Assembly: GCA_002368195.1 (NCBI GenBank)
Contig: AP018178.1
Coordinates: 5,273,286 to 5,337,285, forward strand
Direction of reading: 5' to 3'
From: Calothrix sp. NIES-2100
Lineage (GTDB): Bacteria; Cyanobacteriota; Cyanobacteriia; Cyanobacteriales; Nostocaceae
Length of the DNA: 64,000 nt
Position 1 is the stretch's first letter; each line of letters begins with the position of its first letter. Both the position numbers and the translations under genes were made by a program. The notes under the pieces were generated by a model that did not search any database, was not told the DNA's origin, and was given only the letters and a program-made list of their open reading frames with translations. Of the stretch, positions 12,948 to 57,362 are shown in pieces.

Positions 12948-13472
12948 ATGTCTATCATCTCTAGAAAAATCTGTTTATTTGGTGATTTTGGTGTTGGCAA
13001 AACTAGCCTAATTCGCCAATTTGTAGAACGGCAATTTAATGATAAATATCTTTCAACTGTTGGAGTAAAAATTTCTAAAAAATTGGTTGAATTGTCACCA
13101 ACAGACTTACAGCAGGCACAAAAAATACAGTTTTTAATTTGGGATATTGAAGGTAGTAATAAATTTAAAGCAATTGCTCCTAATTATTTTCAAGGCGCTA
13201 AAGCTGCTGTAATAGTTGGTGATGTAACACAACCAGAAACCCTGAATCATCTCCAGGAACATATCCACAGTTTTTTAGCTGTTAATCCTCAAAGTTATAT
13301 TGCGATCGCTTTGAATAAATCGGACTTGATTGCAGCAGAATATTTAGAAAATCTCCAACGCATTTATCAATTTAGCGACCAGACTAATGTCATAGCTACC
13401 TATACAACTTCCGCGAAAACTGGTAATAATGTTGATGAAATATTTCACATATTAGCTACTCATTTAATTTAA
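12948..13472 (+). CDS. Ras-like small GTPase (MglA/Rup-like) with non-canonical switch II
   Basis: G1 GDFGVGKTS, G3 WDIEGS (canonical DxxGQ with Gln replaced by Ser), G4 LNKSD, G5 SAK; 11-nt gap after upstream gene. Confidence 0.8.
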   Translation: MSIISRKICLFGDFGVGKTSLIRQFVERQFNDKYLSTVGVKISKKLVELSPTDLQQAQKIQFLIWDIEGSNKFKAIAPNYFQGAKAAVIVGDVTQPETLNHLQEHIHSFLAVNPQSYIAIALNKSDLIAAEYLENLQRIYQFSDQTNVIATYTTSAKTGNNVDEIFHILATHLI

Positions 13473-13476
13473 TAAA

Positions 13477-15804
13477 ATGGAATCATTATTGACAAATCTG
13501 TTGTCTATATATCGGATTGAATATCTGACGATTGATGAAAACTTCCAGATTCTGGAGACTTCTCCGGGAATTAATCGTCTGAGCGATATTTATGAAGAAG
13601 TGCAGCTAGGTGAGGATATTCGGATTGTATTTCCGGAAATAGAGGGACTTGAAGATATTTTTGATGCGATTCGACAGGGTGAACAAAATAACTTTGAATT
13701 AAAAGGAATTAGGCGATCGCCAGATACAGCTTCTCCTTTATATATTAATATAAATATTACTAAAGTAGAAAATTATAGCAATAAGATCATAATTTTTGTG
13801 GAAGATGTGACAGAACGAATGGTTCTGGAGCAATCTTTATTTCAGGGTGCAAATGAAGCAAATCTTTTGCTACGTAATAACAAAGCTGCTAAACAATATA
13901 TTGACCAGATTTTGACATCAATGGCGGATGGTTTGTTGGTCACAACGCTTTCAGGAAATATTAAAAAAATCAACCCAGCCGCCAAAATTTTATTAGAATA
14001 TGACGAATCAGAACTTATCGGTCAACCTATCAGCAAAATTTTTCGAGAAGTGGATAGATGTAAGTTAGCAATCGGCGAAATCGAAAGTATCGTTACAACC
14101 CAAAATCCAGAAATTCCTCTACTGAAAGAAGTAGAAACTATTTGTCAAACCAAAAGCGGTAAAACAATTCCGATAGCTGTTTCATACTCAATAGTTCAGA
14201 CAGAAGTTGAACATTTCCAAGGTTATGTTTATATTTTGCGAGACATGACCGAACGAAAGCAAGCAGAACTGGCTAAACAAGAATTTTTAGCGATGATTAG
14301 CCATGAAGTTCGGACTCCGATCGCATCGGTAATTGGGATGGCGAGTTTGTTGCTGAATACTGGATTAACTACTGAGCAACGTGACTTTGTGGAAACCATC
14401 TACACTAGTGGAAATGCTTTACTAGAAATTATTAACGATTTCCTTGACCTCTCGAAAATAGAATCAGGTAAGCTGGAATTAGAAGAACAACCTTTTGCTT
14501 TGCGAACTTGCATTAATGAAGCGCTTTCTCTACTTGCGCCCAAAGCGAGAGAAAAAAAATTAAAACTCACATTTTTAGATACTCCAGAACTTCCAACGAC
14601 AATTGTGGGTGATATCACCAGACTGCGCCAAGTCTTGATTAATTTACTCAGTAATGCTTTAAAATTTACCGAAACTGGAAGTATAGAAGTTTCCGTCATA
14701 AATCGCCAGCTTCACGATACTACAGAGGAAATTCAGTTTACTGTTAAAGATACAGGCATTGGCATTCCCCGCGATCGCCTGGAGCGTTTATTTAAAGCTT
14801 TTATTCAAGTCAACTCCTCCATTACTCGACAGTACGGCGGTACGGGGTTAGGTCTTGCTATCTGCAAGCAACTGTGTGAGTTAATGGGTGGTAGAATTTG
14901 GGTAGAAAGTGAACCAGGTATAGGCAGTAAATTTCACTTCACAATTACTGTAACTGTGATTCCAGAAGAAGTTAGGAGTCGGGAGTCAGGAGTTAATGAT
15001 GCGCAGATTGATACTCATCTAGCCGAACAATATCCATTGAGGATACTTTTAGCTGAAGATAATGCCATTAATCAAAAGATGATTGGGTTGATGTTGCAAG
15101 GAATGGGTTATCAGCCAGATATTGCTAACAATGGTTTAGAAGTAATCTCAGCGCTACGCCGCCAACGCTACGATGTAGTATTGATGGATGTACAAATGCC
15201 AGAAATGGACGGTTTAACAGCAAGCCAGCATATCTGTCAAGAATGGACACCACAAAACCGCCCGCGACTGATCGCATTAACAGCAAGTGCAATGTGGGGC
15301 GATCGCGAAAATTGTCTAGCAGCTGGGATGGATGACTATCTTGCTAAACCAATCCGGATTGCAGAATTGATGCGAGTACTCAAAAGATGTCAGCCTCTCT
15401 CTGCGGTGGAGAAACCGATAGAGAACCAAGCAAAAGTTTCCCATCCAATTGATTCTACTGCCTTAGAAAACATCAGGGGCATGGCAGAGTTTAATACAGA
15501 GGTTGAGTTTAAAGAATTTGTGCGGGAAATTATTAATGACTACCTTGAAGATGCTCCTAAAATACTACAAAATATGCGAGTAGCATTAAGTCAAGGTAAT
15601 TTCAAAAATCTCAGGCTAGCAACGCATACCCTTTACTCTACCAGTGCTACCCTAGGCGCAATGACTCTAGCAAGCCACTGTGCAGAATTAGAAATTGTAG
15701 CCGCAGTTGAAGAACTGGAAAAAGCAACAGCAGGAATTTTAATGATCGAAACTGAATACCAAAATGTTGAAATTGCTTTACAACAAGAAAGGCAAAAACT
15801 CTGA
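13477..15804 (+). CDS. hybrid sensor histidine kinase/response regulator with C-terminal Hpt domain
   Basis: PAS region, HisKA H-box (ISHEVRTPIAS), HATPase_c N/G1/G2 boxes (NLLSNALKFT, DTGIGI, GGTGLGLAICK), REC with phospho-acceptor Asp (VLMDVQMPEMDG), Hpt-like C-terminus (ATHTLYSTSATLGA); starts 4 nt after GTPase stop. Confidence 0.9.
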   Translation: MESLLTNLLSIYRIEYLTIDENFQILETSPGINRLSDIYEEVQLGEDIRIVFPEIEGLEDIFDAIRQGEQNNFELKGIRRSPDTASPLYININITKVENYSNKIIIFVEDVTERMVLEQSLFQGANEANLLLRNNKAAKQYIDQILTSMADGLLVTTLSGNIKKINPAAKILLEYDESELIGQPISKIFREVDRCKLAIGEIESIVTTQNPEIPLLKEVETICQTKSGKTIPIAVSYSIVQTEVEHFQGYVYILRDMTERKQAELAKQEFLAMISHEVRTPIASVIGMASLLLNTGLTTEQRDFVETIYTSGNALLEIINDFLDLSKIESGKLELEEQPFALRTCINEALSLLAPKAREKKLKLTFLDTPELPTTIVGDITRLRQVLINLLSNALKFTETGSIEVSVINRQLHDTTEEIQFTVKDTGIGIPRDRLERLFKAFIQVNSSITRQYGGTGLGLAICKQLCELMGGRIWVESEPGIGSKFHFTITVTVIPEEVRSRESGVNDAQIDTHLAEQYPLRILLAEDNAINQKMIGLMLQGMGYQPDIANNGLEVISALRRQRYDVVLMDVQMPEMDGLTASQHICQEWTPQNRPRLIALTASAMWGDRENCLAAGMDDYLAKPIRIAELMRVLKRCQPLSAVEKPIENQAKVSHPIDSTALENIRGMAEFNTEVEFKEFVREIINDYLEDAPKILQNMRVALSQGNFKNLRLATHTLYSTSATLGAMTLASHCAELEIVAAVEELEKATAGILMIETEYQNVEIALQQERQKL

Positions 15805-17204: not shown

Positions 17205-19256
17205 TCATCCCAAACCGAATAACTTAGAAATTAGCGGCAATAATTTATTTCCAGCTTCCACCAGTGAAGCCACAGCAGGTAAACCTGTAAATATTCCCTT
17301 TAACATGGTGATTGCAGTCTTTGCAGTCTTCTTACTTCCATTCTCTTGGGGATTTTTCGCGGCTTCTGCTAAAGTTTGCACCTGTTCTAAAGCCTCAGCT
17401 TTGTCCTCATCTGATAACTCTGATGATTGGGAAATTTCTTCTTGCAATTGCGTCAACAATTCTTTGATTCCGGGTTTCTCTGCTGACGGTGCATCGGGTA
17501 ACTGATTGAGCGCAACACTCACATTACCGCTAATCGTTCCCAGGTTGGCGACAGCGGCAGAACCACCGCCAGCAATACCGCTAACATTTGTACTACCTTG
17601 AATATTGATGCCGCTGATATCAGACACTTTGTTATCTCCTTGTATATAGTATTTCGACTGCTGAAGTGCAGTTGTCAGCATATTTTCTAAACTAAGAATA
17701 CGACTATCTTTTTCTATAAGTAGGGCTTGCTGACTTTGGGATAAAGCCTTGAGTTGATTATAGTCATCGAAATATTCGGCACTCAGTTGGGATTTATCAC
17801 TCCCTGGTGCGGTTTTAGCTCTAAGTAAGAATTTATCATCGCCGCGTTTCTCCATTGCCACAATTTCTAACTCGGCTTCTGGGTGATTTTCTGCCAGCTT
17901 TTTGAATGCAATTGCAATGGCGCGGGGGTCAACGTTTTGATTGTGGTAAAGGTCAAGGGTGTCAAAAATTGGCTTGATAAAGTCGGCAAAGTCGCCTTCT
18001 TGGAAGACTTCTTGTTGATTATCTGGTTTGCGGAGGGGGTCGGGGTTTTCTTTGGTGGGTAAGCGCATGAAGATATATTCACACCTCACTCCATGCAATT
18101 TAGTTTCACTGGTAATGCCCCAATCTTCAATGAATGCACCTGTGAGGGTTGCACCTGTTAAATCGGTTGCGTCTAGTTGGGTTTGCTTGAGTTTGGCTCT
18201 GGATAAATCCGCATCTTGCAAATTAGCTTCACTGAGGTCAGCGCTGATGAAGCTAGCATCGGCTAGGTTTGCTGATTGTAAGTTTATACCTCGCAGGATT
18301 TGACGGTCAAAGTTTTTGTCCTGTCCTTGTCCTGTAATTAGTAATTCGCGGATTTGTGGGTGTTGCAGGTAAGTTGAGCCAGGGCGAACGCGGTCAAGCA
18401 TTTTGGCTTGATGCCAACGGGTATTAGTCAGGATAGTTTTGTGGAAATCTGTACTTTTGAGTGTGGCTTTGGTGAAATCAGCCTGAGTTAAAGTAGTGCC
18501 ATGAAAACTTGTTCCGCCTGTGGCTGCAAAGTTGACAGCAATATTACGAACCAAGGAATATTTTTCGTCTCCTTTCATTGCTCGCCAAGCGATGTAGATA
18601 CTAAATAATGTTCCAGAAAAGGCGATGGCGAAGGCGTAGGCTCCAGCAAAGGCTCCGTTAACGGAGGCTGCGGAGGCTGCGTAGGCTCCGACGAAAGCTC
18701 CGGCAATAACTTCGGCTCCAGAGACTGCGAAAGCAACGGCGATGGCGTAGGCTCCAGCAAAGGCTCCGGCTCCGGAAACTGCGAAGGCGAAGGCAAAGAC
18801 GAAACCAAATATTCCAGTGAAGGCTCCGGAGGCTGTAAAGGCAAAGGCGAAGGCGACAGCGACAGCAACAGATCCTAAACTAGCTGCTATTCCTTGGCGA
18901 ATTGTAGTTAAGAAAAAGACAATCAATACGATTAAAGCAGTCCAGCCGACGATCCAATTCTCCGTACTATCTCCAAATATAAATGAGACTAAGTAACCGT
19001 TGATAGCCCATAAAAATACAGACACCCCTGACAATAACGAGGAAATAAGCAATAGAAAAATTGCCCAACGACGTTGCAGTCCCGCTTTAGCATGGCTAAA
19101 GTTTGCACCTGTTAAATTAGCATTGGTGAAATTTGCCCCTCGGATGTCGGCATAGCTAAAGTTTGCGCCTGCAAGGTCTTGTCCTTTGAAGTTGCGTCCT
19201 CGGAGATTTTGCCCAGAAAAGTCTAACGCCATGTTCCACTGCGCGAAGATGAGCAA
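17205..19256 (-). CDS. large pentapeptide-repeat membrane protein
   Basis: 683 aa; N-terminal and central pentapeptide repeats (NLRGRNFKGQDLAGANFSYADIRGANF...), Ala/Phe/Gly-rich low-complexity TM block (AFAFAFTASGAFTGIFGFVFAFAFAVSGAGAFAGAYA), coiled-coil C-terminal domain. Confidence 0.8.
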   Translation of the reverse strand: MLIFAQWNMALDFSGQNLRGRNFKGQDLAGANFSYADIRGANFTNANLTGANFSHAKAGLQRRWAIFLLLISSLLSGVSVFLWAINGYLVSFIFGDSTENWIVGWTALIVLIVFFLTTIRQGIAASLGSVAVAVAFAFAFTASGAFTGIFGFVFAFAFAVSGAGAFAGAYAIAVAFAVSGAEVIAGAFVGAYAASAASVNGAFAGAYAFAIAFSGTLFSIYIAWRAMKGDEKYSLVRNIAVNFAATGGTSFHGTTLTQADFTKATLKSTDFHKTILTNTRWHQAKMLDRVRPGSTYLQHPQIRELLITGQGQDKNFDRQILRGINLQSANLADASFISADLSEANLQDADLSRAKLKQTQLDATDLTGATLTGAFIEDWGITSETKLHGVRCEYIFMRLPTKENPDPLRKPDNQQEVFQEGDFADFIKPIFDTLDLYHNQNVDPRAIAIAFKKLAENHPEAELEIVAMEKRGDDKFLLRAKTAPGSDKSQLSAEYFDDYNQLKALSQSQQALLIEKDSRILSLENMLTTALQQSKYYIQGDNKVSDISGINIQGSTNVSGIAGGGSAAVANLGTISGNVSVALNQLPDAPSAEKPGIKELLTQLQEEISQSSELSDEDKAEALEQVQTLAEAAKNPQENGSKKTAKTAITMLKGIFTGLPAVASLVEAGNKLLPLISKLFGLG

Positions 19257-19326
19257 ATTTTACTACACGCTTCAGTCTGTATATTCAGCAATGGTGAGAT
19301 ATTCTTCATGATTCAGGCTCAAAGGT

Positions 19327-19592
19327 GCAGCGTTGAGGGTAAAAGCCGCAATTTCGAGGATAAAAGCCGCAACGTTGAGGATAAAAGCCGCAATTTCGAG
19401 GATAAAAGCCGCAACGTTGAGGATAAAAGCTGCAACGTTGAGGATAAAAGCCGCAATTTCGAGGATAAAAGCTGCAACGTTGAGGATAAAAGCTGCAACG
19501 TTGAGGGTAAAAGCTGCAACGTTGAGGGTAAAAGCTGCAACGTCGAGGATAAAAGCTGCAACGTTGAGGGTAAAAGCTGCAACGTTGAGATT
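19327..19592. repeat. 21-bp tandem repeat array (~12.5 copies; unit ataaaagccgcaacgttgagg with aatttcgagg variant)
   Basis: direct reading; lies immediately 5' of the minus-strand pentapeptide gene; encodes heptad repeats in both strands' ORFs. Confidence 0.9.
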
Positions 19593-19619
19593 TGAGGGAT
19601 TGCCAATTTCAAAATTACC

Positions 19620-19690
19620 CAAATTGTAGGGGCACGGCATCCAAAGACTTTCGGTAAAACAGACAATTGATCGGTGCCGTGCCCCTACCC
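19620..19690. repeat. GTAGGGGCACGGCA-family hairpin repeat
   Basis: gtaggggcacggcatcc...ggtgccgtgcccctaccc inverted repeat; related copies ~5947-6000, ~19795-19835, ~29705-29735. Confidence 0.5.
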
Positions 19691-20112
19691 GATGGATAAT
19701 TGATTTTTTGGTATTCCTTAAAGATGCAACATTGAGGTTTTAGGGACTACCAATTTCCAAAATACCCCCAAATGACAAGCGAAAATAAAGTGTGCAGGTA
19801 GGGGCATCGGCATTGCCGTGCCCTGACAATAATCGGGTACGGAAAAATATTTATATAATTGCGATCGCAAAAAGCCTAAACCCTGGCGATTGTTTCAGTT
19901 AGCCCTTGTGGGTAGTGCCCACCCTACTGAATTTGCCTAGCATATTATATCAGTAAATGTTTTGTCTGTGGCAATGTGGATATATAGCGGTTCTCGTGTG
20001 GATGCAATACACAATCGGGCACAGCAGTGCTGTGCCCCTACGAATGGTATGTATTCTATGCAATTGAGAACGCTATCGGCACAGCATAAACATTCATTTA
20101 CAGGAAAGACTA

Positions 20113-20277
20113 ATGGAACGCTCGAAAATAATTGCCATTCTTACAGGTGCAATTTCTGTACTTTTAGCGATCGCCTACCTGATCGTCGTCCAAATTCTCG
20201 ACTACCGCGATATGAAACCCGCCCCTATTAGCCAACTGAACCAACCGCCGGCAATTGTGGCTTCCGCTTGGAACTAA
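20113..20277 (+). CDS. possible small single-TM protein (54 aa) upstream of ndhF-like gene
   Basis: ATG ORF MERSKIIAILTGAISVLLAIAYLIVVQILDYRDMKPAPISQLNQPPAIVASAWN; below the ORF-track size cutoff; hydrophobic helix. Confidence 0.3.
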   Translation: MERSKIIAILTGAISVLLAIAYLIVVQILDYRDMKPAPISQLNQPPAIVASAWN

Positions 20278-20644
20278 AAATTCCCTTTTCGCATATACCT
20301 AAGGATATAAATATTTGAAGAGACGCAATCAATTGCGTCTTTTGTCGTTTATATCCATTGATAAAACAAATGATAACTATTGATTAATTGCAATGATTGT
20401 CTATAGATAGAAATTAATAGTTACGATTTGTTAATCAAATAAAGCCCTTATATAAGAATTAATTAGAGGAAGTATCGATGATTTATTTAATTAAAGTATT
20501 TCCTTTTTGTCATAGATAAAGGTAAGCTATTTTTAACAAAATTAAGCAAAAATAAAATCGAACTATTTGAGATGGCTGGGTTAGCTGCTATCAAAGCTTT
20601 TTGATGCATAACCCCAGAGTTTTGCTGCAAATTATAGAGGTAAG

Positions 20645-22507
20645 TTGATGGCTCAGTTTCTCTTAGAGACTGTTTGGCTAGTTCCGTGCTATGCCTTAAT
20701 AGGTGGGCTTTTAGCCGTTCCTTGGTCGCCAGGAGTAATTCGCCGCACTGGCCCAAGACCGGCGGGTTATGTCAATTTAGTAATGACATTTCTAGCGTTG
20801 ATGCACAGTGCGATCGCATTGTTCGCCACTTGGAATCAACCACCAGTAGAAGTATTTATACCTTGGCTTTCTACAGCTGGTTTAAATCTTACCATTGCTA
20901 TAGAAATTTCTTCCATAAGTGTGGGAGCGATAACTGTAATCACTGGCTTAAATTTCTTAGCCCAAATTTATGCCATTGGTTACATGGAAATGGATTGGGG
21001 TTGGGGACGCTTCTATTCTTTATTAGGACTGTTTGAAGCGGGATTGTGTGCCCTGGCTCTATGTAATAACCTGTTCTTTAGTTATGTAATTCTGGAAGTT
21101 CTGACTTTAGGAACCTATTTGCTAGTTGGCTTATGGTTCAGTCAGCCCTTGGTAGTTAGCGGTGCGAGAGACGCTTTCCTTACCAAACGGGTGGGTGACT
21201 TATTCCTGCTGATGGGTGTGTTGGGATTGTGGCCTTTAGCTGGTACTTGGAATTATACAGAATTAGCTGAATGGGCGACAACTGCCAATGTTGACCCCAC
21301 AGTTATCGCCCTGGTGGGTTTAGCTTTAATTGCGGGGCCAATGGGTAAATGTGCCCAATTCCCCCTGCATTTGTGGTTGGATGAAGCAATGGAAGGCCCA
21401 GTTCCCAGTACAATTTTGCGGAACTCGGTGGTAGTAGCCAGTGGTGCGTGGGTACTAATTAAACTGCAACCTGTATTAACTTTGTCTCCTTTTGTTTCCT
21501 CAGCAATTGTAGCAATTGGTGCAGTTACAGCCGTTGGTGCTTCCTTAATTGCGATCGCCCAAGTTGATATTAAACGCTGTCAATCCTATTCTGTCAGCGC
21601 TTACATGGGTTTGGTGTTTATCGCTGTGGGGACGAAACAAGACGACGCAGCACTGTTGTTAGTACTGACCCATGCTGTATCAGCGGCACTGTTGGTCATG
21701 AGTACTGGGGGAATTATCTGGAACAGCATTACCCAAAATGTTACCCAATTAGGTGGACTATGGTCACGTCGTCCAATATCTGCGATCGCCTTTATTATTG
21801 GAACTTTGGGATTAATTGGGTTTCCACCTCTAGGCGGCTTTTGGGCGCTGATGGAGTTAACGGATAGTCTTTGGGAAAATCAACCTTGGTTGGTTGGTGT
21901 GGTTGTAGCTGTCAACGTTTTAACCGCAGTCAGTTTAACCAGAGAATTTGGTCTAGTTTTTGCTGGTAAACCCAAACAGATGAGTGAGCGATCGCCTGAA
22001 GTACATTGGCCAATGGTATTGCCAATGGTGATTTTATTCGGTTTCGTCCTACATCTGCCCTTAGTGTTACAAAGTTTAGCATTATTACCAGATTGGGTAA
22101 CTTTGAATAAAGACGTTGCACTGTTGTTAATTTGGTCAACAATTTTTGGTTGTGGTATTAGTGGCGTAATTTATTTAGGTAATATTCCTAAACCAATTCG
22201 CTTACCTTGGCAACCTTTACAAGACTTGTTTGCCTACGATTTTTACACCCCAAAAATCTATCGGATGACGATTATTTTCAGCGTCGCCCAACTTTCCAAA
22301 TTGGCTGATATGGTTGACCGTTTCGTAGTAGATGGTATTGTGAATTTGGTGGGTTTATTCTCCCTATTAACTGGCGAAGGTCTGAAATATAGCACATCTG
22401 GACAAACCCAATTTTATGCTTTCACTGTGCTTTTAGGCGTTGGTGTATTGGGAATGTGGGTAACTTGGCCATTCTGGGGAGTACAGTTTTTAAATTTGAT
22501 GTTTTAG
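20645..22507 (+). CDS. ndhF4: NAD(P)H-quinone oxidoreductase subunit F homologue of CO2-uptake NDH-1 complex (NdhF3/F4 class)
   Basis: 620 aa polytopic antiporter-like subunit; length and neighbours (ndhD-like, cup gene, no cupS) fit the constitutive ndhF4-ndhD4-cupB arrangement; the 3-versus-4 assignment is an inference. Confidence 0.8.
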   Translation: MMAQFLLETVWLVPCYALIGGLLAVPWSPGVIRRTGPRPAGYVNLVMTFLALMHSAIALFATWNQPPVEVFIPWLSTAGLNLTIAIEISSISVGAITVITGLNFLAQIYAIGYMEMDWGWGRFYSLLGLFEAGLCALALCNNLFFSYVILEVLTLGTYLLVGLWFSQPLVVSGARDAFLTKRVGDLFLLMGVLGLWPLAGTWNYTELAEWATTANVDPTVIALVGLALIAGPMGKCAQFPLHLWLDEAMEGPVPSTILRNSVVVASGAWVLIKLQPVLTLSPFVSSAIVAIGAVTAVGASLIAIAQVDIKRCQSYSVSAYMGLVFIAVGTKQDDAALLLVLTHAVSAALLVMSTGGIIWNSITQNVTQLGGLWSRRPISAIAFIIGTLGLIGFPPLGGFWALMELTDSLWENQPWLVGVVVAVNVLTAVSLTREFGLVFAGKPKQMSERSPEVHWPMVLPMVILFGFVLHLPLVLQSLALLPDWVTLNKDVALLLIWSTIFGCGISGVIYLGNIPKPIRLPWQPLQDLFAYDFYTPKIYRMTIIFSVAQLSKLADMVDRFVVDGIVNLVGLFSLLTGEGLKYSTSGQTQFYAFTVLLGVGVLGMWVTWPFWGVQFLNLMF

Positions 22508-22673
22508 GGACTAGGGACTAGGGATTAGGGACTAGGGACTAGAAAACAGAGATTTTTTCGGGATTGACTGATTAAAAAATGCTGAATGTCGAATAAAAAT
22601 ACTAGCCCCTACCCCCTCCATAGACAATTTTTCAATTCCATGCATAACAATTTCCTGGTGTGAGCAAAAAACC

Positions 22674-23393
22674 ATGACAAAACAACATCGCCAAACAAAT
22701 GTTTCTCGCAGAAATTTACTCAAGCTAAGTGCAGGTGCAATTAGCGCAGGAGTATTAACAGCCGGATTAGGTTCAAATTTGGTTGCACCTGAAAAAGCCT
22801 CAGCACAAGACAAAAAAGATATCACTCCCGATGACGCACTAAAAGCATTATTGGATGGAAATGATCGGTTTGTGAAAGCCAAAAAACGCAACCCTAACCA
22901 AAGCCAATCACGTTTACGCGAAGTTGCAAAAGGTCAAAACCCCTTTGCTTCTATTCTAGGTTGTGCAGATTCACGAGTGCCTTCGGAGATAGTTTTTGAT
23001 CAGGGTTTAGGAGATTTATTTGTCTGCCGTGTAGCAGGTAATATTGCCACAAAAGAAGAAACCGGTAGCCTAGAATTTGGCAGCTTAGTATTAGGTTCTA
23101 AGCTAATTCTGGTACTAGGTCATGAAAGATGTGGGGCTGTAGATGCAACTATTAAGGGTGCATCAGTACCAGGAGAAATTGGTAGTTTATTAGAAGCAAT
23201 TAAACCTGGTGTAGAAAGATCTCAAGGACAAGCAGGCGATAAATTAGAAAATGCTTGTAAAGCTAACATTTTAGTACAAATTGAGAAATTGAAATCATCC
23301 CCAGTGCTATCTGAGTTAATCAAAGCTGATAAACTGAAAATAGTTGGTGGTTATTACGATTTGGATACTGGCAAAGTCAGCTTAGTTAGTTAG
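22674..23393 (+). CDS. beta-class carbonic anhydrase with twin-arginine signal (EcaB-like)
   Basis: RRNLLKLSAGAISAG Tat motif; beta-CA zinc ligands CADSRVP and GHERCGAV. Confidence 0.8.
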   Translation: MTKQHRQTNVSRRNLLKLSAGAISAGVLTAGLGSNLVAPEKASAQDKKDITPDDALKALLDGNDRFVKAKKRNPNQSQSRLREVAKGQNPFASILGCADSRVPSEIVFDQGLGDLFVCRVAGNIATKEETGSLEFGSLVLGSKLILVLGHERCGAVDATIKGASVPGEIGSLLEAIKPGVERSQGQAGDKLENACKANILVQIEKLKSSPVLSELIKADKLKIVGGYYDLDTGKVSLVS

Positions 23394-23553
23394 GTCATTG
23401 GTCATTGGTCATTGGTCATTGGTCATTGGTCAGAGGGAATAGCACAGAATTTTGAATTGTTTGTCTACCTTGAATTTTGACTCTTGACCTTTGACTCTTG
23501 ACCCTTGACTCCTTTGAAAATCTCTACTTTTCACTAAACTTACCCAAATTGCC

Positions 23554-25053
23554 ATGTTAAGTGTTTTGATTTGGCTCCCGATTTTAGCAGCAGCTATTAT
23601 AGCAGTAATACCTAAAAATCTGCCGACAAATACTGTACGGTTAAGTGCTTTATACTTTGCTGCGATAACTTTGCTTTGGAATATTTTTATTCTCTTCAAA
23701 TTTGATATCAGCAATCCGGGGATGCAGTTTCAAGAAAATATTCCTTGGAATGAAACTCTCGGTTTAAGTTATCAATTAGGAGTTGATGGACTTTCTATAC
23801 TCATGCTGGTGTTAAATAGCTTACTAACTTGGATTGCTATTTACAGCAGCAGTAAAGAGACTGAAAGACCTCGGCTTTTTTACTCGCTAATTTTATTAGT
23901 TAGTGGTGGGGTAGCAGGTGCGTTTCTAGCTGAGAATTTACTGCTATTCTTCTTGTTCTATGAATTAGAATTAATTCCCTTCTATCTTCTAATCTCTATT
24001 TGGGGAGGGGAAAAACGTGGTTATGCAGGTATCAAATTCCTGATTTACACAGCTGTTTCCGGGGCGCTAATTTTAGCAACTTTCTTGGGTACAGTTTGGC
24101 TGACTGGTTCTACCAGTTTCGCCTTTGATGCGATTTCTACCCAAACTCTATCCGCCGGAATGCAAATCATTCTTTTGGCAGGGATAGTATTAGGTTTTGG
24201 GATTAAAATTCCCTTGGTTCCCTTCCATACCTGGTTACCTGATGCTTATGTGGAAGCTTCTGCACCAATTGCGATTCTTTTGGGTGGTGTATTAGCAAAG
24301 CTGGGAACCTACGGACTGTTAAGATTTGGGATGGGGATGTTTCCCGAAGCGTGGAGTACCATTGCACCAACATTGGCGACTTGGGGCGCAATTAGTGCAA
24401 TTTATGGGGCAGTAGTTGCGATCGCCCAAAAAGATATCAAGCGCATGGTAGCATACAGTTCCATCGGTCACATGGGTTATATTTTGCTCGCTGGTGCTGC
24501 TAGTACTCCCCTGGCGTTGGTTGGTGCTGTCGCCCAAATGTTTAGCCACGGTTTGATTCTCGCTATCTTGTTCCATTTGGTGGGAGTCGTGGAAACCAAG
24601 GTTGGAACCCGGGAGTTAGATAAACTCAATGGTTTAATGAGTCCAATTCGGGGTTTACCTTTAATTAGCGCTTTGCTGGTATTAAGTGGAATGGCGAGTG
24701 CTGGTATTCCCGGTTTAACAGGATTCGTTGCGGAATTTATCTCTTTTCAGGGTAGTTTCTCAGCGTTTCCTATCCCGACGCTGTTGTGTGTTGTCGCTAG
24801 TGGTTTAACCGCAGTTTATTTTGTCATTCTTCTCAACCGCACCTGTTTTGGTAGACTTGATAATTTAGCCTACTATCCTAAAATTCAATGGTTTGAGAGA
24901 ACACCTGCGTTAATTTTGGCAGCTTTAATCATCTTTTTGGGAGTTCAACCGACTTGGTTAGTGCGTTGGAGTGAACCAACAACTACTAAGATGGTGGCTG
25001 CTATTCCGGCGTTGGAAAAAACCGTTAACTCTGAAGTTGCTTTGAAACCATAA
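23554..25053 (+). CDS. ndhD4: NAD(P)H-quinone oxidoreductase subunit D homologue of CO2-uptake NDH-1 complex (NdhD3/D4 class)
   Basis: 499 aa polytopic NuoM/NdhD family; the 3-versus-4 assignment inferred from context. Confidence 0.8.
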   Translation: MLSVLIWLPILAAAIIAVIPKNLPTNTVRLSALYFAAITLLWNIFILFKFDISNPGMQFQENIPWNETLGLSYQLGVDGLSILMLVLNSLLTWIAIYSSSKETERPRLFYSLILLVSGGVAGAFLAENLLLFFLFYELELIPFYLLISIWGGEKRGYAGIKFLIYTAVSGALILATFLGTVWLTGSTSFAFDAISTQTLSAGMQIILLAGIVLGFGIKIPLVPFHTWLPDAYVEASAPIAILLGGVLAKLGTYGLLRFGMGMFPEAWSTIAPTLATWGAISAIYGAVVAIAQKDIKRMVAYSSIGHMGYILLAGAASTPLALVGAVAQMFSHGLILAILFHLVGVVETKVGTRELDKLNGLMSPIRGLPLISALLVLSGMASAGIPGLTGFVAEFISFQGSFSAFPIPTLLCVVASGLTAVYFVILLNRTCFGRLDNLAYYPKIQWFERTPALILAALIIFLGVQPTWLVRWSEPTTTKMVAAIPALEKTVNSEVALKP

Positions 25054-25236
25054 ATTCTCTTACTCTCTGCGCCTCTGCGTCTCTGCGTGAGATTAATAAT
25101 TTAAACGAACAGCAAAGGCGCGTTCGGCGAAGCCGTTCCCGAAGGGTAGTACACAAAAGAAGAAAAAAATGAAGAGACTTTCTCAGATGATTTAGGATTG
25201 CTATCAGGAGTTACACAACAATAATCAGGAGGAAGG

Positions 25237-25863
25237 ATGAATTTAAAATTAATTCCCAGTGCTTTAGTACTATTTCGGTTTTTAATTTCGCCCTTCCTCC
25301 TTTGGGATGCTCTTGATGGTAAAACTAGTATTTGGTTCATTGTTGGTTTCGTCGCCGCTTTCCTCTCAGATATTTTTGATGGCATTATTGCTAGAAGACT
25401 TGGTGTGAGTACTGCCGAATTAAGACAAGCTGATAGTTGGGCTGATGTTTGCCTGTTTAGTTGCATATTTGTGAGTGCTTGGCTGGTATATCAAGATGTT
25501 TTAATTGCTTATCGAGTGCCTTTACTCACAGTAGTTTTTGCTCAGTTGATATGGTGGATAGTGAATTTAGTAAAATATGGTAAACCTGCTAGCTATCACA
25601 CCTATTCAGCTAAGTTTTGGGGCATCACTCTTTGTATTGCGATTATTTCTCTATTCGGCTTTAACTATGCTGGAATAACTTTATGGCTAACTTGTATTGC
25701 TGGTGTAGTCTACAGTATTGAAGAAATAGCCATGACAATCATTCTGCCAGTTTGGACACATGATGTTTTAAGCATTTTTCATGCCCTGAAAATTAGGGAA
25801 AATTTATTAATTCAAAATAACGTGATTGAATCACAACAATCACTAATGACAAATGACCAATGA
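25237..25863 (+). CDS. CDP-alcohol phosphatidyltransferase-like membrane protein (divergent motif)
   Basis: DALDG...DGIIARRLGVSTAELRQADSWAD approximates DG(x)2AR(x)8G(x)3D(x)3D with Gly replaced by Leu; 208 aa, multiple TM helices. Confidence 0.45.
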   Translation: MNLKLIPSALVLFRFLISPFLLWDALDGKTSIWFIVGFVAAFLSDIFDGIIARRLGVSTAELRQADSWADVCLFSCIFVSAWLVYQDVLIAYRVPLLTVVFAQLIWWIVNLVKYGKPASYHTYSAKFWGITLCIAIISLFGFNYAGITLWLTCIAGVVYSIEEIAMTIILPVWTHDVLSIFHALKIRENLLIQNNVIESQQSLMTNDQ

Positions 25864-25891
25864 CAATTGACAAATATAAAAGGATTTAAAA

Positions 25892-27211
25892 ATGACAACA
25901 ACTGTTAATACATCAACTAAATTACCCCCTTCCCGCCATGAATTTGCTGAAGTAATTCATCGCTTAGAAGCTGGCGGTTCAATGTTACCAGATACGCCAG
26001 AAAATTTAATGCAAATTATCGGCTTGTATAAAGCTTATGCAGTGCCGATGGATTTTTACTGGCGAGATTTACTTTATATTGCGGAACAGGAATTTTTAAA
26101 TCCCTTTCCCTTCTTTAAATACTTCTTACCTAAAGAATATTTAGACAGACATAATCATTATGCTGGTGATGATGCCGATTTACGCATTTGGCGGGGACAC
26201 GCAACAGCCCATCCTGAGTTATTAGCATTTATTGAAAAAGGTGAAACTGGGAAAATGCCCAGATTATTTCACCATTTATTCCACGATCGCATTAACATGG
26301 AGTTTGCTGAAGCTTGTATGCGCGCTATGCTTTGGCATCGGCAGATGTATGCGCCAGTAAACCAGTTTGACGCTTACCTCGATTCAGAAGAATATAAAGC
26401 TAACGCCGATAGGGCAATTAAAGCTTACTTCAAAGGTAACCCAGTGATGTTGACACTGCACAAGCTGTTCCCCGATATGTTTATCGAACAGTGTCGCCAG
26501 ATGTCTTACTACTCTAATTTAGGGTTATTCTGGGAAGTCATGGCACCCGTGTTCTTTGAAATGTCGGATATCTACGACGAAGGCGGGTTTAAAGGTGTCC
26601 CCGACGCGATGAATTTTATAGTGAACGGCATTTTTGCGATCGCAGGTCGTCCGATTTATCATCATGTATATATAGATGGGGAATGCTATGAAATCATCCC
26701 CAAATCTAAGGGTTTCACCTGGCTATACGAAGCCGCCTTACCTTATGTAGAAGCCGTTTTCTACCGCACCGCACCTTTTAGGGGGACAAAATCTTATAAT
26801 GCTCAAGCAGGTCAAGTACCTGATGACCAAAAAGATTTTCACTATGGTATTCTCTACGCTGATGTCTTCCCAGTTGGTACAGCCGGTATCCCCCCCACAC
26901 TGTTGATGCAAGATATGTTACACTTCTTACCCCAATATCTTGTTGATTATTACAAAAAACATTGTCGTGGCGAAGAAGATATGTTGATTCAGTTAGGAGT
27001 GAGTTTCCAACGTTCAATGTATAATGTAACTTCCGCAGTAATTCAAGCATTACGCACTGCACTTTTATATCCTTTAGATGACCAAAATCCCAAGCATTTA
27101 CAAGCAAACCGGGATTTCTTTGAAATGCAGCTAAATCGCTTTACTCGCGCTGATTACAATATGCGCGATTCAGCCCGTTTACGGAGTATTCAAAGCCAGG
27201 ATTACAGGTAG
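25892..27211 (+). CDS. cupB: CO2 hydration protein (ChpX/CupB-like)
   Basis: 439 aa; overall similarity to ChpX/ChpY family; no cupS neighbour. Confidence 0.8.
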   Translation: MTTTVNTSTKLPPSRHEFAEVIHRLEAGGSMLPDTPENLMQIIGLYKAYAVPMDFYWRDLLYIAEQEFLNPFPFFKYFLPKEYLDRHNHYAGDDADLRIWRGHATAHPELLAFIEKGETGKMPRLFHHLFHDRINMEFAEACMRAMLWHRQMYAPVNQFDAYLDSEEYKANADRAIKAYFKGNPVMLTLHKLFPDMFIEQCRQMSYYSNLGLFWEVMAPVFFEMSDIYDEGGFKGVPDAMNFIVNGIFAIAGRPIYHHVYIDGECYEIIPKSKGFTWLYEAALPYVEAVFYRTAPFRGTKSYNAQAGQVPDDQKDFHYGILYADVFPVGTAGIPPTLLMQDMLHFLPQYLVDYYKKHCRGEEDMLIQLGVSFQRSMYNVTSAVIQALRTALLYPLDDQNPKHLQANRDFFEMQLNRFTRADYNMRDSARLRSIQSQDYR

Positions 27212-27389
27212 TCAAAGAAAGCGGTACTGCTGTCATATAGGGCTAGTATTTGATTTTTGAAATATAGGTAGGTGGGCATTGCCCACCCTACACTTTACAC
27301 TCACGCTTCAGGTGTACGGGATTTGTTCAAAAATCACAACAAATATTTTTTACCGAAAATATAAAAACTTAAAATTTATAAAAATGAAA

Positions 27390-27671
27390 TTATAAATGGT
27401 TTGGACAGGAACCAAATTTCTCTAAAAGCTCAGAGATGCGCTCATTATCTGAACAACGCCAAGTAATGTTAATAGATTTTTCCTCATTAAAACCTGGTTC
27501 ACCATAACCTGAGAATGCATTAGCATCAGGGCTTATATACTCTTCATACACGCAAGTTAGTAGCCTATTTTCAGTTGGTGAAACTTGTTGAAGACCAAAA
27601 TCGTGTTTGAATGTCCCTGCAACCCATCCATTAGGTGTTAAATGCCATTCTCTCCATTCTTTGCTTGCCAT
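27390..27671 (-). CDS. hypothetical small protein
   Basis: 93-aa ORF, Trp-rich, no recognisable motif. Confidence 0.35.
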   Translation of the reverse strand: MASKEWREWHLTPNGWVAGTFKHDFGLQQVSPTENRLLTCVYEEYISPDANAFSGYGEPGFNEEKSINITWRCSDNERISELLEKFGSCPNHL

Positions 27672-27804
27672 TTTGTAGTTCCTTTGTGTAATTCAATCGA
27701 TATACTTTGCTCAAGCTGTAACAAGTATAGCATTAGTACATTTACTTATTTAACCCCAGCTTTAGTGGCATGGCAAGGCTAACGCACCTTAAATTTTCGT
27801 TAAT

Positions 27805-28285
27805 GCGGAATCAACTTCAGGGTTCTCGGAATCAACTTCAGGGTTGACGTTTCCGTGTTTCGCGTACCCGGAATCAACTTCAGGGTTCCCGGAATTAACT
27901 TCAGGGTTGACGTTTCCGTGTTTCGCGTACCCGGAATCAACTTCAGGGTTCCCAGAATCAACTTCAGGGTTGACGTTTCCGTGTTTCGCGTACCCGGAAT
28001 TAACTTCAGGGTTGACGTTTCCGTGTTTCGCGTACCCAGAATCAACTTCAGGGTTCCCGGAATCAACTTCAGGGTTGACGTTTCCGTGTTTCGCGTACCC
28101 AGAATCAACTTCAGGGTTCCCAGAATCAACTTCAGGGTTGACGTTTGCGTGTTTCGCGTACCCAGAATCAACTTCAGGGTTCCCAGAATCAACTTCAGGG
28201 TTGACGTTTGCGTGTTTCGCGTACCCAGAATCAACTTCAGGGTTCCCGGAATCAACTTCAGGGTTGACGTTTCCGTATTTCGCGC
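27805..28285. repeat. complex tandem repeat (~63-bp composite unit: 2x cggaatcaacttcagggttcc + gacgtttccgtgtttcgcgtacc), ~8 copies
   Basis: direct reading; open in three + frames and one - frame; lies between two minus-strand genes. Confidence 0.9.
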
Positions 28286-28312
28286 AAGCTGTAGCTATTT
28301 CCGCATCCCGTT

Positions 28313-29500
28313 TTAAGCAACTTCTGATAATTTCCCATCAAGACGGCGAAATAGAAATAACCAAATAGGTAGTGAACTATTAATGGCAATCAGTCTGACT
28401 AAATGACCAGTTGTGACAACTTCAACATTATGATTCAATACCAGAGACACGAGAATCATCTCTGCTGAACCTCCGGGCGCTGTCACCAATAGACAAGTTA
28501 ACCAATCCCAAGAAGTTAATTGCATAGCTAGCATAGCAGCGATCGCACCTGCAATTAAAGTCATGACTACAGATATTACCGCATAGACTACAGTACGTTT
28601 TTTAAAGCTGGGTTTTTCTCCCCAATACTCACCGATGGTAATTCCTAACAGCATTTGCCCAACTATATTGATCAGTGAGGGTGGGGTAAAGTGAAGATTA
28701 TGGACAAAAGGTAGCAAATTTAGCACAGGATTAAATCCGATACCAATTAATAAAGCCCCAAAAAAATCCCCAGCGGGGATTTTAAATAATATCGACAGGT
28801 AAACTACAAATCCTGTTATCCCCAAGGCTAACAATAGTAATCCTAATTGAGAACTATCGAAATTCAACAAACTACTTTGTATGGTGATTGTTTGTGGATT
28901 CCAAGCATTACCAACTGTGGTTCTAGCAATAAAAGGAATCAGAAAAACTACAGATGTAACGCGCAAAGCCTGAACTAATGCTACTAGGGTGACATTTCTG
29001 CCATAATCAGCCGCAATAGATGCCATAATTCCCACACCACCGGGGACTGTAGCTAGCATTGCTGTTAACAAGTTAGTTTGACTGAGGCGGGAATAAATGT
29101 AGCCAATACCACTACCACAAAGTAACAGAAAAAATGTTAATAAAACAAAAATCGGAATCCCAGAAGCGACACTAGCTAAATCACTATGGGTAGTTGAGGC
29201 TCCAACTGTTAATCCTACCAATCCCATGCCCACCTTTCTGGCAGTTCGGTTAGGTTTGGGAGAATATTGATAGAAAATTCGACATCCCTGTAAAACTATA
29301 GTACCAGCCGCAATCCCCCCAAATATCCAAGCAATTCCGCCAATGTGGAATGTTGCTAAACTTAAACCTAAAGGTAATGCCAGTAGCATTTCTAAAACTA
29401 GGACAGCTAGTTGCTTGATAAATGGGTTTTCTGGAGCAACGGTAGGATTTCCAGCAGTGGATTCCTCTACAATGGGAATAAGATTAAAACTATGATTCAT
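28313..29500 (-). CDS. polytopic membrane protein (possibly AbrB-duplication/putative transporter family)
   Basis: 395 aa, ~10 TM helices with internal duplication; family assignment weak. Confidence 0.45.
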   Translation of the reverse strand: MNHSFNLIPIVEESTAGNPTVAPENPFIKQLAVLVLEMLLALPLGLSLATFHIGGIAWIFGGIAAGTIVLQGCRIFYQYSPKPNRTARKVGMGLVGLTVGASTTHSDLASVASGIPIFVLLTFFLLLCGSGIGYIYSRLSQTNLLTAMLATVPGGVGIMASIAADYGRNVTLVALVQALRVTSVVFLIPFIARTTVGNAWNPQTITIQSSLLNFDSSQLGLLLLALGITGFVVYLSILFKIPAGDFFGALLIGIGFNPVLNLLPFVHNLHFTPPSLINIVGQMLLGITIGEYWGEKPSFKKRTVVYAVISVVMTLIAGAIAAMLAMQLTSWDWLTCLLVTAPGGSAEMILVSLVLNHNVEVVTTGHLVRLIAINSSLPIWLFLFRRLDGKLSEVA

Positions 29501-33350: not shown

Positions 33351-33740
33351 TTATTCTGTTTCAATCAAAACAGTAACAGCCGCAACCGCTATCAACATTT
33401 CGTCATTTTTATCGTTGAGAGAAGGAATTGCCCGTCCTTGAACTACCATCCCCCCAGCTTCTACAGTGAGAGTTTTACGACCAAAGGGTAATACTGCTAA
33501 TACATCATCATGCTTGACTTGTTCCGGGTATGGTACTGCTACCTGGACTTCCACAATCATGTCATTGGGGTCAGTTAAACCTGCTACTTCCCAAACACCA
33601 GGTAAAGCATTATTTGCGATCGCATTTCGTACCGCCCTCGCCGCTGCTACAGTCGGTTCCTGTCCGTGCTGATCGATTCCCATCCCCATTTCGATAATCA
33701 AGCGTTTTCGCACCACTGCAACCTCCCAAAAATTTTGCAC
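33351..33740 (-). CDS. conserved hypothetical protein
   Basis: 129-aa ORF. Confidence 0.45.
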   Translation of the reverse strand: MQNFWEVAVVRKRLIIEMGMGIDQHGQEPTVAAARAVRNAIANNALPGVWEVAGLTDPNDMIVEVQVAVPYPEQVKHDDVLAVLPFGRKTLTVEAGGMVVQGRAIPSLNDKNDEMLIAVAAVTVLIETE

Positions 33741-56085: not shown

Positions 56086-56385
56086 TTACTTTCCGCTGTA
56101 AGCAGTAGAGTTAACTAAAGCGTTAGCAGCACCAGCTGTGGTTTGAGTAACAAATACGATTTGAGCAATGTTCTTTTGTCCACCAGAAGCATCAGCAGAA
56201 CCAGATACTTCAGCCAAGTTACCAGCTAAACCACCGGTGTTCACAGCAAAGCTCTTGTAGGTGGTTTCGACAATGGTTTGCTTAACGTTTTTGTTGAGGT
56301 TAAAGGCTACGTTGGTAGCGAATCCGTCGCCACCAATTACTTCTTCAGATGCATCTTCAAAGTAGTTTAGGTCGTTGATAATCAT
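56086..56385 (-). CDS. small secreted peptide precursor with double-glycine-type leader (bacteriocin-like), copy A
   Basis: start set at MIINDLNYFEDASEEVIGG (strong AGGAGA RBS 9 nt upstream; ORF track begins further upstream); 99 aa; Gly/Ala/Thr/Asn-rich core. Confidence 0.6.
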   Translation of the reverse strand: MIINDLNYFEDASEEVIGGDGFATNVAFNLNKNVKQTIVETTYKSFAVNTGGLAGNLAEVSGSADASGGQKNIAQIVFVTQTTAGAANALVNSTAYSGK

Positions 56386-56465
56386 TGCTTTTCTCCTGAG
56401 ATTTGTTTGTATCAACTCTGTTTGAGTTGTTGATATCAATATAGCTAAGTCAATTCTGCTTGTAT

Positions 56466-56983: not shown

Positions 56984-57283
56984 TTACTTTCCGCTGTAAG
57001 AAGTAGAGTTAACTAAAGCGTTAGCTGAATTGGCTGTGGTTTGAGTAACAAATACGATTTGAGCGATGTTCTTTTGTCCGCCAGAAGCATCAGCAGAACC
57101 AGATACTTCAGCCAAGTTACCAGCTAAACCGCCTGTGTTCACAGCAAAGCTCTTGTAGGTGGTTTCGACAATGGTTTGCTTAACGTTTTTGTTGAGGTTA
57201 AAGGCTACGTTGGTAGCGAATCCGTCGCCACCAATTACTTCTTCAGATGCATCTTCAAAGTAGTTTAGGTCGTTAATAATCAT
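56984..57283 (-). CDS. small secreted peptide precursor with double-glycine-type leader, copy B
   Basis: 99 aa; differs from copy A at a few core positions (TTANSANALVNSTSYSGK versus TTAGAANALVNSTAYSGK). Confidence 0.6.
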   Translation of the reverse strand: MIINDLNYFEDASEEVIGGDGFATNVAFNLNKNVKQTIVETTYKSFAVNTGGLAGNLAEVSGSADASGGQKNIAQIVFVTQTTANSANALVNSTSYSGK

Positions 57284-57362
57284 TGCTTTTCTCCTGGTTT
57301 TGTTTGTATCAACTCTGTTTGAGTTGTTCATATAAATATAGCTAAGTAAATTCTGCTTGTAT

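Follow-up and report, generated by a model that had tools for sequence, protein, structure and literature searches.

We analysed a stretch of 64,000 nucleotides from the genome of Calothrix sp. NIES-2100 (GenBank assembly GCA_002368195.1, contig AP018178.1, positions 5,273,286 to 5,337,285 of the forward strand; the whole stretch is hereafter called the window, and coordinates are counted from its first letter), which harbors at 20113-27211 a gene cluster for CO2 uptake by the NDH-1 complex. This cluster is almost certainly, judging from its encoded proteins, the ndhF3-ndhD3-cupA operon of the NDH-1MS type, i.e. the inducible, high-affinity system, the inducibility being taken from its orthologues. 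It has two additional members, a gene for a beta-class carbonic anhydrase (CA) with a twin-arginine translocation (Tat) signal between ndhF3 and ndhD3, and a gene for a CDP-alcohol phosphotransferase-type membrane protein of 208 amino acids (hereafter X) between ndhD3 and cupA. All six open reading frames (ORFs) named in an earlier annotation made from the letters alone (the first-pass annotation) are present at their coordinates on the + strand in the ORF list of the window, and the gene order and family that it gave for the five genes of the operon are borne out by profile matches. The features of the region are as follows.

20113..20277, + strand: small gene of 54 codons, orphan protein with one transmembrane (TM) helix, upstream of ndhF3
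20318..20343, + strand: terminator-like hairpin, 11-bp stem followed by a T-run, directly 3' of the small gene
20397..20566, no strand: AT-rich conserved non-coding block upstream of ndhF3
20648..22507, + strand: ndhF3, antiporter-like CO2-channel subunit of NDH-1MS (TIGR01960, match to 6tjv_F)
22505..22542, no strand: heptamer tandem repeat TAGGGAC x5.4 in the ndhF3-CA spacer (Tandem Repeats Finder, TRF)
22674..23393, + strand: beta-class CA with predicted Tat signal, 239 amino acids, accessory gene 1 (Pro_CA, TIGR01409)
23393..23511, no strand: heptamer tandem repeats GGTCATT x5.7 and CTTGACT x6 in the CA-ndhD3 spacer (TRF)
23554..25053, + strand: ndhD3, proton-pumping antiporter-like subunit of NDH-1MS, 499 amino acids (6tjv_D, NF005611)
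25237..25863, + strand: X, CDP-alcohol phosphotransferase-type protein, 208 amino acids, accessory gene 2 (PF01066)
25892..27211, + strand: cupA (chpY), CO2-hydration subunit of NDH-1MS, 439 amino acids (ChpXY, TIGR01964, 6tjv_P)
27270..27288, - strand: terminator-like hairpin, 8-bp stem with six G-C pairs, between the convergent cupA and a 93-amino-acid minus-strand ORF

The three core proteins are all of the type found in the low-CO2-induced NDH-1MS complex, solved by cryo-electron microscopy as 6TJV according to its source paper. The Cup protein matches ChpXY (547 bits) and TIGR01964 (758 bits), and its residues 7-438 align with 6tjv_P (Tlr0906, CupA) with 717 bits and 71% identity (439 versus 437 amino acids). 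Its His/Arg/Glu triad is H128/R133/E137. The triads given in a 2026 preprint on the NDH-1MS' complex are at 130/135/139 in CupA and at 88/93/97 in CupB, and the Cup protein of the window is therefore in the CupA register, not in that of CupB, which lies 42 residues away. NdhF passes TIGR01960 (ndhF3_CO2) with 1020 bits (cutoff 589) and matches 6tjv_F (NdhF3) with 726 bits versus 261 bits for NdhF1, which places it in the CO2-uptake family and not with the respiratory F1. TIGR01960 and ChpXY both span type 3 and type 4 paralogues. The reading of this gene as F3 rather than F4 derives from the adjoining CupA and from the reported lack of interchangeability of the two modules, CupA and CupB modules forming no chimeras according to the 2026 preprint. 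The ligand-site residues R38/Y42/E115 match Arg37/Tyr41/Glu114 of NdhF3, so that the CupA-NdhF3 site is intact. Finally, NdhD matches 6tjv_D (NdhD3) with 611 bits versus 306 bits for NdhD1. Two NCBIfam equivalog models exist for CO2-uptake NdhD, NF005611 and NF005060; the protein of the window passes the former (908 bits, cutoff 764) and fails the latter (736 bits, cutoff 747), and NdhD3 of Thermosynechococcus elongatus orders the two models alike (744 versus 648 bits). The end-to-end CupA identity, the triad register and the NdhF3 and NdhD3 matches run counter to the first-pass annotation, which had proposed a constitutive-type cluster with cupB.

The absence of cupS had been put forward as a sign of type 4. 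No cupS lies beside the cluster, the next downstream gene being on the opposite strand, and a PDB search with the concatenated mid-sized ORFs of the window returned no CupS match, a weak negative since matches to Rab GTPases flooded the list. Nostoc PCC 7120 has its low-CO2-induced ndhF3/ndhD3/cupA genes at alr4156-4158 and its cupS orthologue elsewhere (alr1320); in T. vestitus, cupS (tll0220) and cupA (tlr0906) are likewise unlinked. A missing cupS is therefore not diagnostic of type 4.

Compared with the NDH-1MS operon ndhF3-ndhD3-cupA(-cupS) of Synechocystis (sll1732-1735) and T. elongatus (6TJV), the window has an orthologous core in the same order, with CupA 71% identical to that of T. 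elongatus and the CupA-NdhF3 ligand-site residues conserved, but it adds the beta-CA and the CDP-alcohol phosphotransferase and has neither cupS nor cupAR downstream. The alr4156-alr4157-alr4158 operon of Nostoc (Anabaena) PCC 7120, also a member of the Nostocales with an unlinked cupS, is induced on CO2 step-down; its consecutive locus numbers, with nothing in between, correspond to a fully reduced form. The plain three-gene loci of close relatives encode proteins 85-90% identical to those of the window and share the small upstream ORF. The NDH-1MS' system (ndhF4/ndhD4/cupB) has a homologous CO2-hydration module, whose His/Arg/Glu and Arg/Tyr/Glu site residues are conserved in the window; it differs in being a paralogous constitutive system, with a Cup register shifted by 42 residues and no lipid-synthase gene reported.

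The two additional genes recur in other genomes. About 110 related loci were compared overall. A CupA-alignment scan of reference genomes gave 80 Nostocales loci, all from close relatives (CupA 87-96% identical), and mapping by tblastn with the window proteins (core proteins 75-96% identical) gave 77 complete loci; the distribution outside Nostocales rests on three loci (L001, L084 and L085) and on metagenomic loci. Among the complete loci, the five-gene form ndhF3-CA-ndhD3-X-cupA is present in 12, window included, the form with CA only in 39, the form with X only in eight and the plain ndhF3-ndhD3-cupA form in 18. The five-gene order was also found in Nostoc punctiforme PCC 73102, in Microcoleus sp. 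FACHB-672 (Oscillatoriales) and in two metagenomic lineages (L093 and L107) with NdhF 64-70% identical. The two genes are thus kept at their exact positions in relatives across cyanobacterial orders, a conservation on which the first-pass annotation had made its reading depend.

The CA matches Pro_CA with 135 bits (cutoff 25.7) and harbors all the zinc and catalytic residues, namely C97, D99, R101, H150 and C153 (Cys-His-Cys ligands and Asp-Arg dyad). The twin-arginine signal noticed at first pass holds up, the N-terminus scoring 18.0 bits against the Tat signal model TIGR01409 (cutoff 16.7), with a SRRNLLK motif followed by an ASA-Q cleavage-type site (Ala-x-Ala). Both the SRRxLxK motif and the catalytic residues are kept across the orthologues. 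There is no lipobox, as residues 1-60 contain no cysteine and a cysteine occurs there in just one of 52 orthologues; lacking a cysteine in its leader, the protein is not a lipoprotein. The closest solved relative is Rv3588c of Mycobacterium tuberculosis (124 bits). Of the 77 complete loci, 51 have the gene in the ndhF3-ndhD3 interval, and the ratio of its non-synonymous to synonymous substitution rates (dN/dS) is 0.13-0.17. From these residues and the leader, we consider it very likely that the protein is an active enzyme and exported.

In cyanobacteria, Tat export leads to the periplasm as well as to the thylakoid lumen, and an active Tat-exported CA would go to one or the other. Co-expressed with the pump, it would equilibrate CO2 and bicarbonate on the far side of the membrane and thereby replenish the CO2 that NDH-1MS traps as bicarbonate in the cytoplasm, and the presence of an exported CA gene together with the genes of a CO2 pump fits such a replenishment of CO2 from bicarbonate outside the cytoplasm. 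The dedicated functional coupling that the first-pass annotation had drawn from the position of this gene is still plausible in this sense; it is weakened by the 18 complete operons out of 77 that have neither extra gene. A more specific version of this scheme places the CA in the thylakoid lumen, where it would dehydrate bicarbonate at acid pH and the resulting CO2 would enter the non-polar tunnel of NdhF3 leading to the CupA site. Lumenal targeting is compatible with the Tat leader, the literature already proposes a tunnel that would lead CO2 from the lumenal face of NdhF3 to the CupA-NdhF3 site, supply of CO2 from the lumen is one of two live hypotheses in a review, and EcaB is reportedly mostly thylakoid-associated. 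The sequence does not separate lumenal from periplasmic targeting, however, there is no known route for bicarbonate into the lumen, without coupling to some other process the cycle would be futile, and a third of the orthologous operons have no CA, so that we regard the lumenal version as possible yet rather unlikely.

EcaB of Synechocystis (slr0051) is the nearest described parallel. It is likewise a beta-class CA with an export leader and a proposed link to NDH-1 CO2 uptake, and it is described as mostly thylakoid-associated, interacting with CupA and CupB, and carrying a lipoprotein attachment site. This last trait sets it apart from the CA of the window and its orthologues, whose leaders have no cysteine. 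Moreover, ecaB is scattered in the surveyed genomes, whereas the CA gene of the window lies inside the ndhF3 operon.

The second accessory protein, X, matches PF01066 (CDP-OH_P_transf) with 62.7 bits (cutoff 22) and shows the six-TM fold of this family. All 27 close homologues aligned (65-92% identity) have the signature D45-x2-D48-G49-x2-A52-R53-x8-L62-x3-D66-x3-D70 without variation. The first-pass annotation had described the active-site motif as degenerate; on the contrary, D45, D48, G49, A52, R53, D66 and D70 are all invariant and the sole departure from the canonical motif is Leu62, which replaces the second Gly, four residues before the third Asp. In 30 distant homologues (27-54% identity), the catalytic residues are invariant or at least 90% conserved, and Leu62 is conserved too. 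Being conserved across the whole X family, this leucine is a subfamily trait and not a sign of decay. Positions peculiar to the family, namely His121, Lys126 and a LPxWxHD block, are kept in these distant homologues as well, and X has in addition a KPASYHTYSAK block. Where the gene is intact its dN/dS is 0.085-0.13, close to the 0.06-0.09 of NdhF and NdhD.

The predicted fold of X is closest to that of the phosphatidylglycerol (PG)-phosphate synthase PgsA. It differs from PgsA of Staphylococcus aureus (7DRJ/7DRK) in several respects: the identity is about 19%, X is far below the pgsA equivalog cutoffs, its motif has Leu for the second Gly, it carries its own invariant KPASYHTYSAK and LPxWxHD blocks, and it is dispensable. 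X matches neither pgsA model (TIGR00560 and NF008090) at E<=0.01, and distant members of the family match them weakly, below cutoff. X is not the housekeeping PG synthase, since many genomes do without it although PG has to be made in them too. The gene has its own AGGAGG ribosome-binding site and ends between -2 and about 75 nt from the start of cupA in most loci, a spacing from which X is predicted to be often translationally coupled to cupA.

A metagenome scan gave X homologues both linked to NDH genes (52-86% identical to X of the window) and standalone (49-73%). A clean split between the two groups at about 65% identity, with linked copies above and standalone ones below, was ruled out, since standalone copies reach 73% and linked ones go down to 52%. 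In the tree, all NDH-linked X proteins lie in one clade together with a few standalone members (L096, L104 and L110). The sister clade is wholly standalone, with cyanobacterial-looking neighbours, and the remoter relatives are standalone in unrelated contexts. No common neighbourhood was found around the standalone copies, only promiscuous families. The ndhD3-X-cupA arrangement is thus the only recurrent context for the X family and reflects long vertical inheritance. The existence of standalone homologues elsewhere means that the function of X is not strictly NDH-1MS-dependent, and its activity is evidently useful beyond the NDH-1MS context too. On one cyanobacterial contig (JAESGO010000024.1), two standalone paralogues of X (L120 and L129), 58-59% identical to that of the window, lie about 65 kb apart, each preceded by a similar ORF of 100-113 amino acids.

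From its motif, X is likely an enzyme rather than a structural relic, and the intact motif argues against the purely structural or auxiliary subunit suggested by the first-pass annotation. The corresponding alternative, in which X would be a non-catalytic subunit or assembly factor of NDH-1MS, its fold being reused as a scaffold on NdhD3, NdhF3 or CupA, could draw on the Leu in place of the second Gly, on the position of X tight against cupA, on the failure of X to pass any named enzyme equivalog and on the precedent of CupAR (sll1736), a two-TM protein of Synechocystis that is encoded in the operon and binds NdhD3 and NdhF3. We nevertheless judge it unlikely, as neither the four catalytic Asp nor G49, A52 and R53 vary within the NDH-linked clade or among distant standalone relatives (27-54% identity), which have no NDH partner, and the Leu is a family-wide trait. 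X is not CupAR itself: both are extra small membrane proteins of the ndhF3 operon, CupAR being associated with NdhD3 and NdhF3, but CupAR has 127 amino acids and two TM helices, is encoded downstream of cupS and has no PF01066 (CDP-alcohol transferase) domain.

A more specific role for X may be sought in the lipids of the Cup-NdhF interface. In the 2026 NDH-1MS' preprint, a well-defined PG with its head group resolved is present at the CupB-NdhF4 interface. It forms hydrogen bonds with three conserved CupB residues (His, Trp and Arg) and with Arg37 and Trp454 of NdhF4, and it occupies the pocket that in CupA had earlier been assigned to Zn. CupA itself touches several lipids in NDH-1MS according to the NDH-1MS structure paper. 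No paper joining pgsA or PG with cyanobacterial NDH-1 was found in the searchable literature. With its PgsA-like fold, and with a gene that directly precedes cupA and is predicted to be often coupled to it in translation, X is a candidate local supplier of a PG-type lipid. If X is active as a CDP-alcohol phosphotransferase, its most likely product would be an anionic phospholipid (PG-phosphate or a close relative), made from CDP-diacylglycerol at the site of assembly of the NdhD3/NdhF3/CupA module in the thylakoid membrane, and this product would support a lipid-dependent CupA-NdhF3 interface. That X serves NDH-1MS through PG-type lipid synthesis is a tentative and rather improbable proposal, built by analogy with the CupB complex. 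The most ambitious form of it, with X as a dedicated lipid-cofactor synthase filling the Cup-NdhF pocket, the Tat-exported CA feeding CO2 from across the membrane and the five-gene operon as the complete ancestral unit, appears doubtful; if true, model strains with their three-gene operons would have reduced versions, dependent on bulk lipid and uncatalysed CO2/bicarbonate equilibration.

The history of the operon appears to be one of repeated gene loss. The four forms are interleaved on a tree of concatenated core proteins, and near-identical sister loci differ in form (L007/L008, L012/L009, L044/L046, L022/L014 and L016/L026). The presence of CA and that of X are statistically independent (Fisher p=0.42). 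Remnants of X persist between ndhD3 and cupA in five loci (L015 8477-8856, L071 8682-8984, L049 8814-8942, L072 8836-8983 and L008 8863-8943) as internal deletions, frameshifts and N- or C-terminal stubs, with weaker traces in L009 and L068; these fragments in loci without X point therefore to recent independent pseudogenisation. No pseudogene remnants of the CA were found in operons without it. Because the outgroup has all five genes, the simplest history starts from an ancestral five-gene operon, from which genes were lost many times independently, and the operon of the window, by its gene content, would be the ancestral five-gene form, preserved here and wanting in model cyanobacteria. Both accessory genes are under strong purifying selection where present, yet they have been lost independently many times, a patchy retention that would be expected if CA and X improve the CO2-uptake module without being required.

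Other genes occupy the same intervals in some loci. In Halotia wernerae (L069 7511-8680, - strand), an IS605/TnpB-type gene with a Cas12f1-like TNB domain lies at the position of X between ndhD3 and cupA. In one metagenomic lineage only (L114 and L116, 6674-7318), a class I S-adenosylmethionine-dependent methyltransferase of 214 amino acids is encoded between X and cupA on the same strand; the phospholipid N-methyltransferase PmtA is its top NCBIfam match, at 69 bits versus a cutoff of 390, which is too weak to use. The alternative that CA and X are passengers, inserted into a permissive, repeat-rich operon from which they are now being purged and having no tie to CO2 uptake, would account for such insertions at the same sites (the TnpB element of L069, the methyltransferase of L114), as well as for the mosaic and mutually independent distribution of CA and X, the frequent X pseudogenes, the heptamer repeats filling the spacers and the standalone X homologues. 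It is an improbable one, given that the two genes keep the same positions in Nostocales, Oscillatoriales and distant metagenomic lineages (NdhF 64-70% identical), that intact copies are under strong purifying selection, that carbonic anhydrase chemistry bears directly on a CO2 pump and that all NDH-linked X proteins fall in one clade, which implies long vertical co-inheritance with the operon. Finally, a constitutive, low-affinity NDH-1MS' cluster (ndhF4-ndhD4-cupB) with an embedded EcaB-type CA could draw on the lack of cupS next to the Cup gene and on the family models TIGR01960 and ChpXY, which include both types. It can hardly be right: cupS and cupA are unlinked in Nostoc PCC 7120 and T. 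vestitus, the full-length Cup protein shares 71% identity with CupA and has a triad 42 residues off the CupB register, and NdhD passes the equivalog preferred by the structural NdhD3 and fails the other.

Several observations weigh against an NDH-1MS operon with functional CA and X. The choice between types 3 and 4 rests on CupA identity, residue register and the model preference of NdhD rather than on a full tree. Both extra genes are dispensable, 18 of the 77 complete operons having neither, and X decays often. X passes no named NCBIfam equivalog, pgsA included, and homologues of it at 49-73% identity stand alone in other cyanobacterial contexts. The PG was seen for CupB-NdhF4, in a preprint whose authors allow for a purification artefact. 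Moreover, the repeat-filled spacers of 160-183 nt leave room for internal promoters within a unit whose co-transcription is predicted from the gene arrangement, and the roles of CA and X in this organism are read from sequence. On balance, we find the five-gene NDH-1MS operon as a whole, leaving aside the lipid-supply step of X, a reasonably probable explanation.

The CO2-uptake operon itself is textbook, and its extended form is apparently undescribed. No account was found in the searchable literature of a CA gene at the ndhF3-ndhD3 junction, nor of a CDP-alcohol phosphotransferase gene at the ndhD3-cupA one, and none of the comparative papers on the CO2-concentrating mechanism (CCM) that were checked mentions a CA inside the ndhF3 operon. 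Comparative CCM surveys score ndhF3, ndhD3 and cupA only, and describe ecaB as scattered. Two points are unsettled in CO2 hydration by CupA and CupB, namely whether Zn or a lipid is present at the interface and whether CO2 comes from the cytoplasm or the lumen. The operon variant bears on both of them, as a lipid-synthase-type enzyme and an exported CA are inherited with the pump across cyanobacterial orders. Sister genomes with or without each gene (L007/L008, L012/L009, L044/L046 and L022/L014) provide natural near-isogenic comparisons, and Nostoc punctiforme PCC 73102, which is genetically tractable, carries the full five-gene form. Should the extra genes be only dispensable helpers, they would still be a useful correction to CCM surveys that score the three core genes.

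The small ORF upstream of ndhF3, which the first-pass annotation had proposed as a possible single-TM protein, is a genuine, strongly constrained gene by its pattern of substitution. In 53 related loci, some of which lack the extra genes, an orthologue precedes ndhF by 290-600 nt; the pairwise differences by codon position are 7242/520/17215 and the dN/dS is 0.10-0.20. The first 40 residues (TM helix and LDYRDMKPAP) are conserved and the tail is variable. The protein is 100% identical to NIES2100_42780 of Calothrix sp. NIES-2100; its 364 homologues are all from Nostocales and annotated as 'hypothetical protein', and it belongs to no Pfam family. The gene precedes ndhF3 whether the operon is plain or extended, and so has no tie to the accessory genes. 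The hairpin that follows it suggests that it forms its own transcription unit. At a guess, its product might be a small subunit associated with NDH-1MS.

Between the small gene and ndhF3, the block 20397-20566 shows long runs of columns at least 80% identical in an alignment of 20 Nostocales loci covering the 330 nt upstream of ndhF, and it contains the palindrome-like CTATAGATAG and TTAAT-N12-TTAAT elements. This block probably represents the promoter/operator and 5' untranslated region of the operon. The NdhR consensus of Synechocystis (ATAG-N8-CTAT) is not enriched and is absent upstream of ndhF3, no exact match to the Synechocystis RbcR or NtcA consensus occurs in 19600-20700, and Rfam gave no match in 19000-28500. 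The ORF finder places NdhF at 20645-22507 (620 amino acids) with a TTG start. The start kept among relatives is the ATG at 20648, 8 nt past a GAGG ribosome-binding site, and not the TTG at 20645; the alignment with T. elongatus NdhF3 likewise begins one residue in, supporting the ATG.

Spacers of 160-183 nt occur within the operon, and those between ndhF3 and CA and between CA and ndhD3 (160-166 nt) are filled with 7-bp tandem repeats. These heptamer arrays, at 22505-22542, 23393-23432 and 23469-23511, have 5-6 copies each and begin at or beside stop codons; the unusual length of these two spacers may be due to them. We take them to be repeats of the short tandemly repeated repetitive (STRR) type, as in heterocystous cyanobacteria. 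The hairpin at 27270..27288 marks the end of the cluster. The upstream neighbours (a pentapeptide-repeat membrane protein, an ABC-2 permease and a hybrid histidine kinase) and the downstream ones (an AbrB-duplication membrane protein, a SnoaL protein and a PaO-type Rieske oxygenase) have no tie to carbon uptake, and the cluster is therefore a self-contained unit.

Larger tandem arrays flank the cluster, a 21-mer x12.8 at 19321-19589 upstream and a 42/63-mer at 27806-28284 downstream, and give rise to long spurious ORFs in several frames. The 93-amino-acid ORF convergent with cupA (27390-27671, - strand) matches no Pfam or NCBIfam family; it is also gene-called beside cupA on an independent assembly (L170). 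Farther upstream, a Ras/Rab-like small GTPase of 174 amino acids (12948-13472, + strand; best PDB matches Rab22/Rab14/Rab5, E ~1e-23) is encoded by a gene ending 4 nt before that of a hybrid PAS-histidine kinase-receiver-Hpt protein (13477-15804, + strand), and the pair possibly forms a GTPase-coupled two-component unit. An ORF of 129 amino acids (33351-33740, - strand) matches PDB 3C8L ('FtsZ-like protein of unknown function') with 217 bits. Finally, two near-identical paralogous ORFs of about 115 amino acids at 56086-56439 and 56984-57331 (- strand) have in common the sequence RRKAMIINDLNYFEDASEEVIGGDGFATNVAFNLNK.

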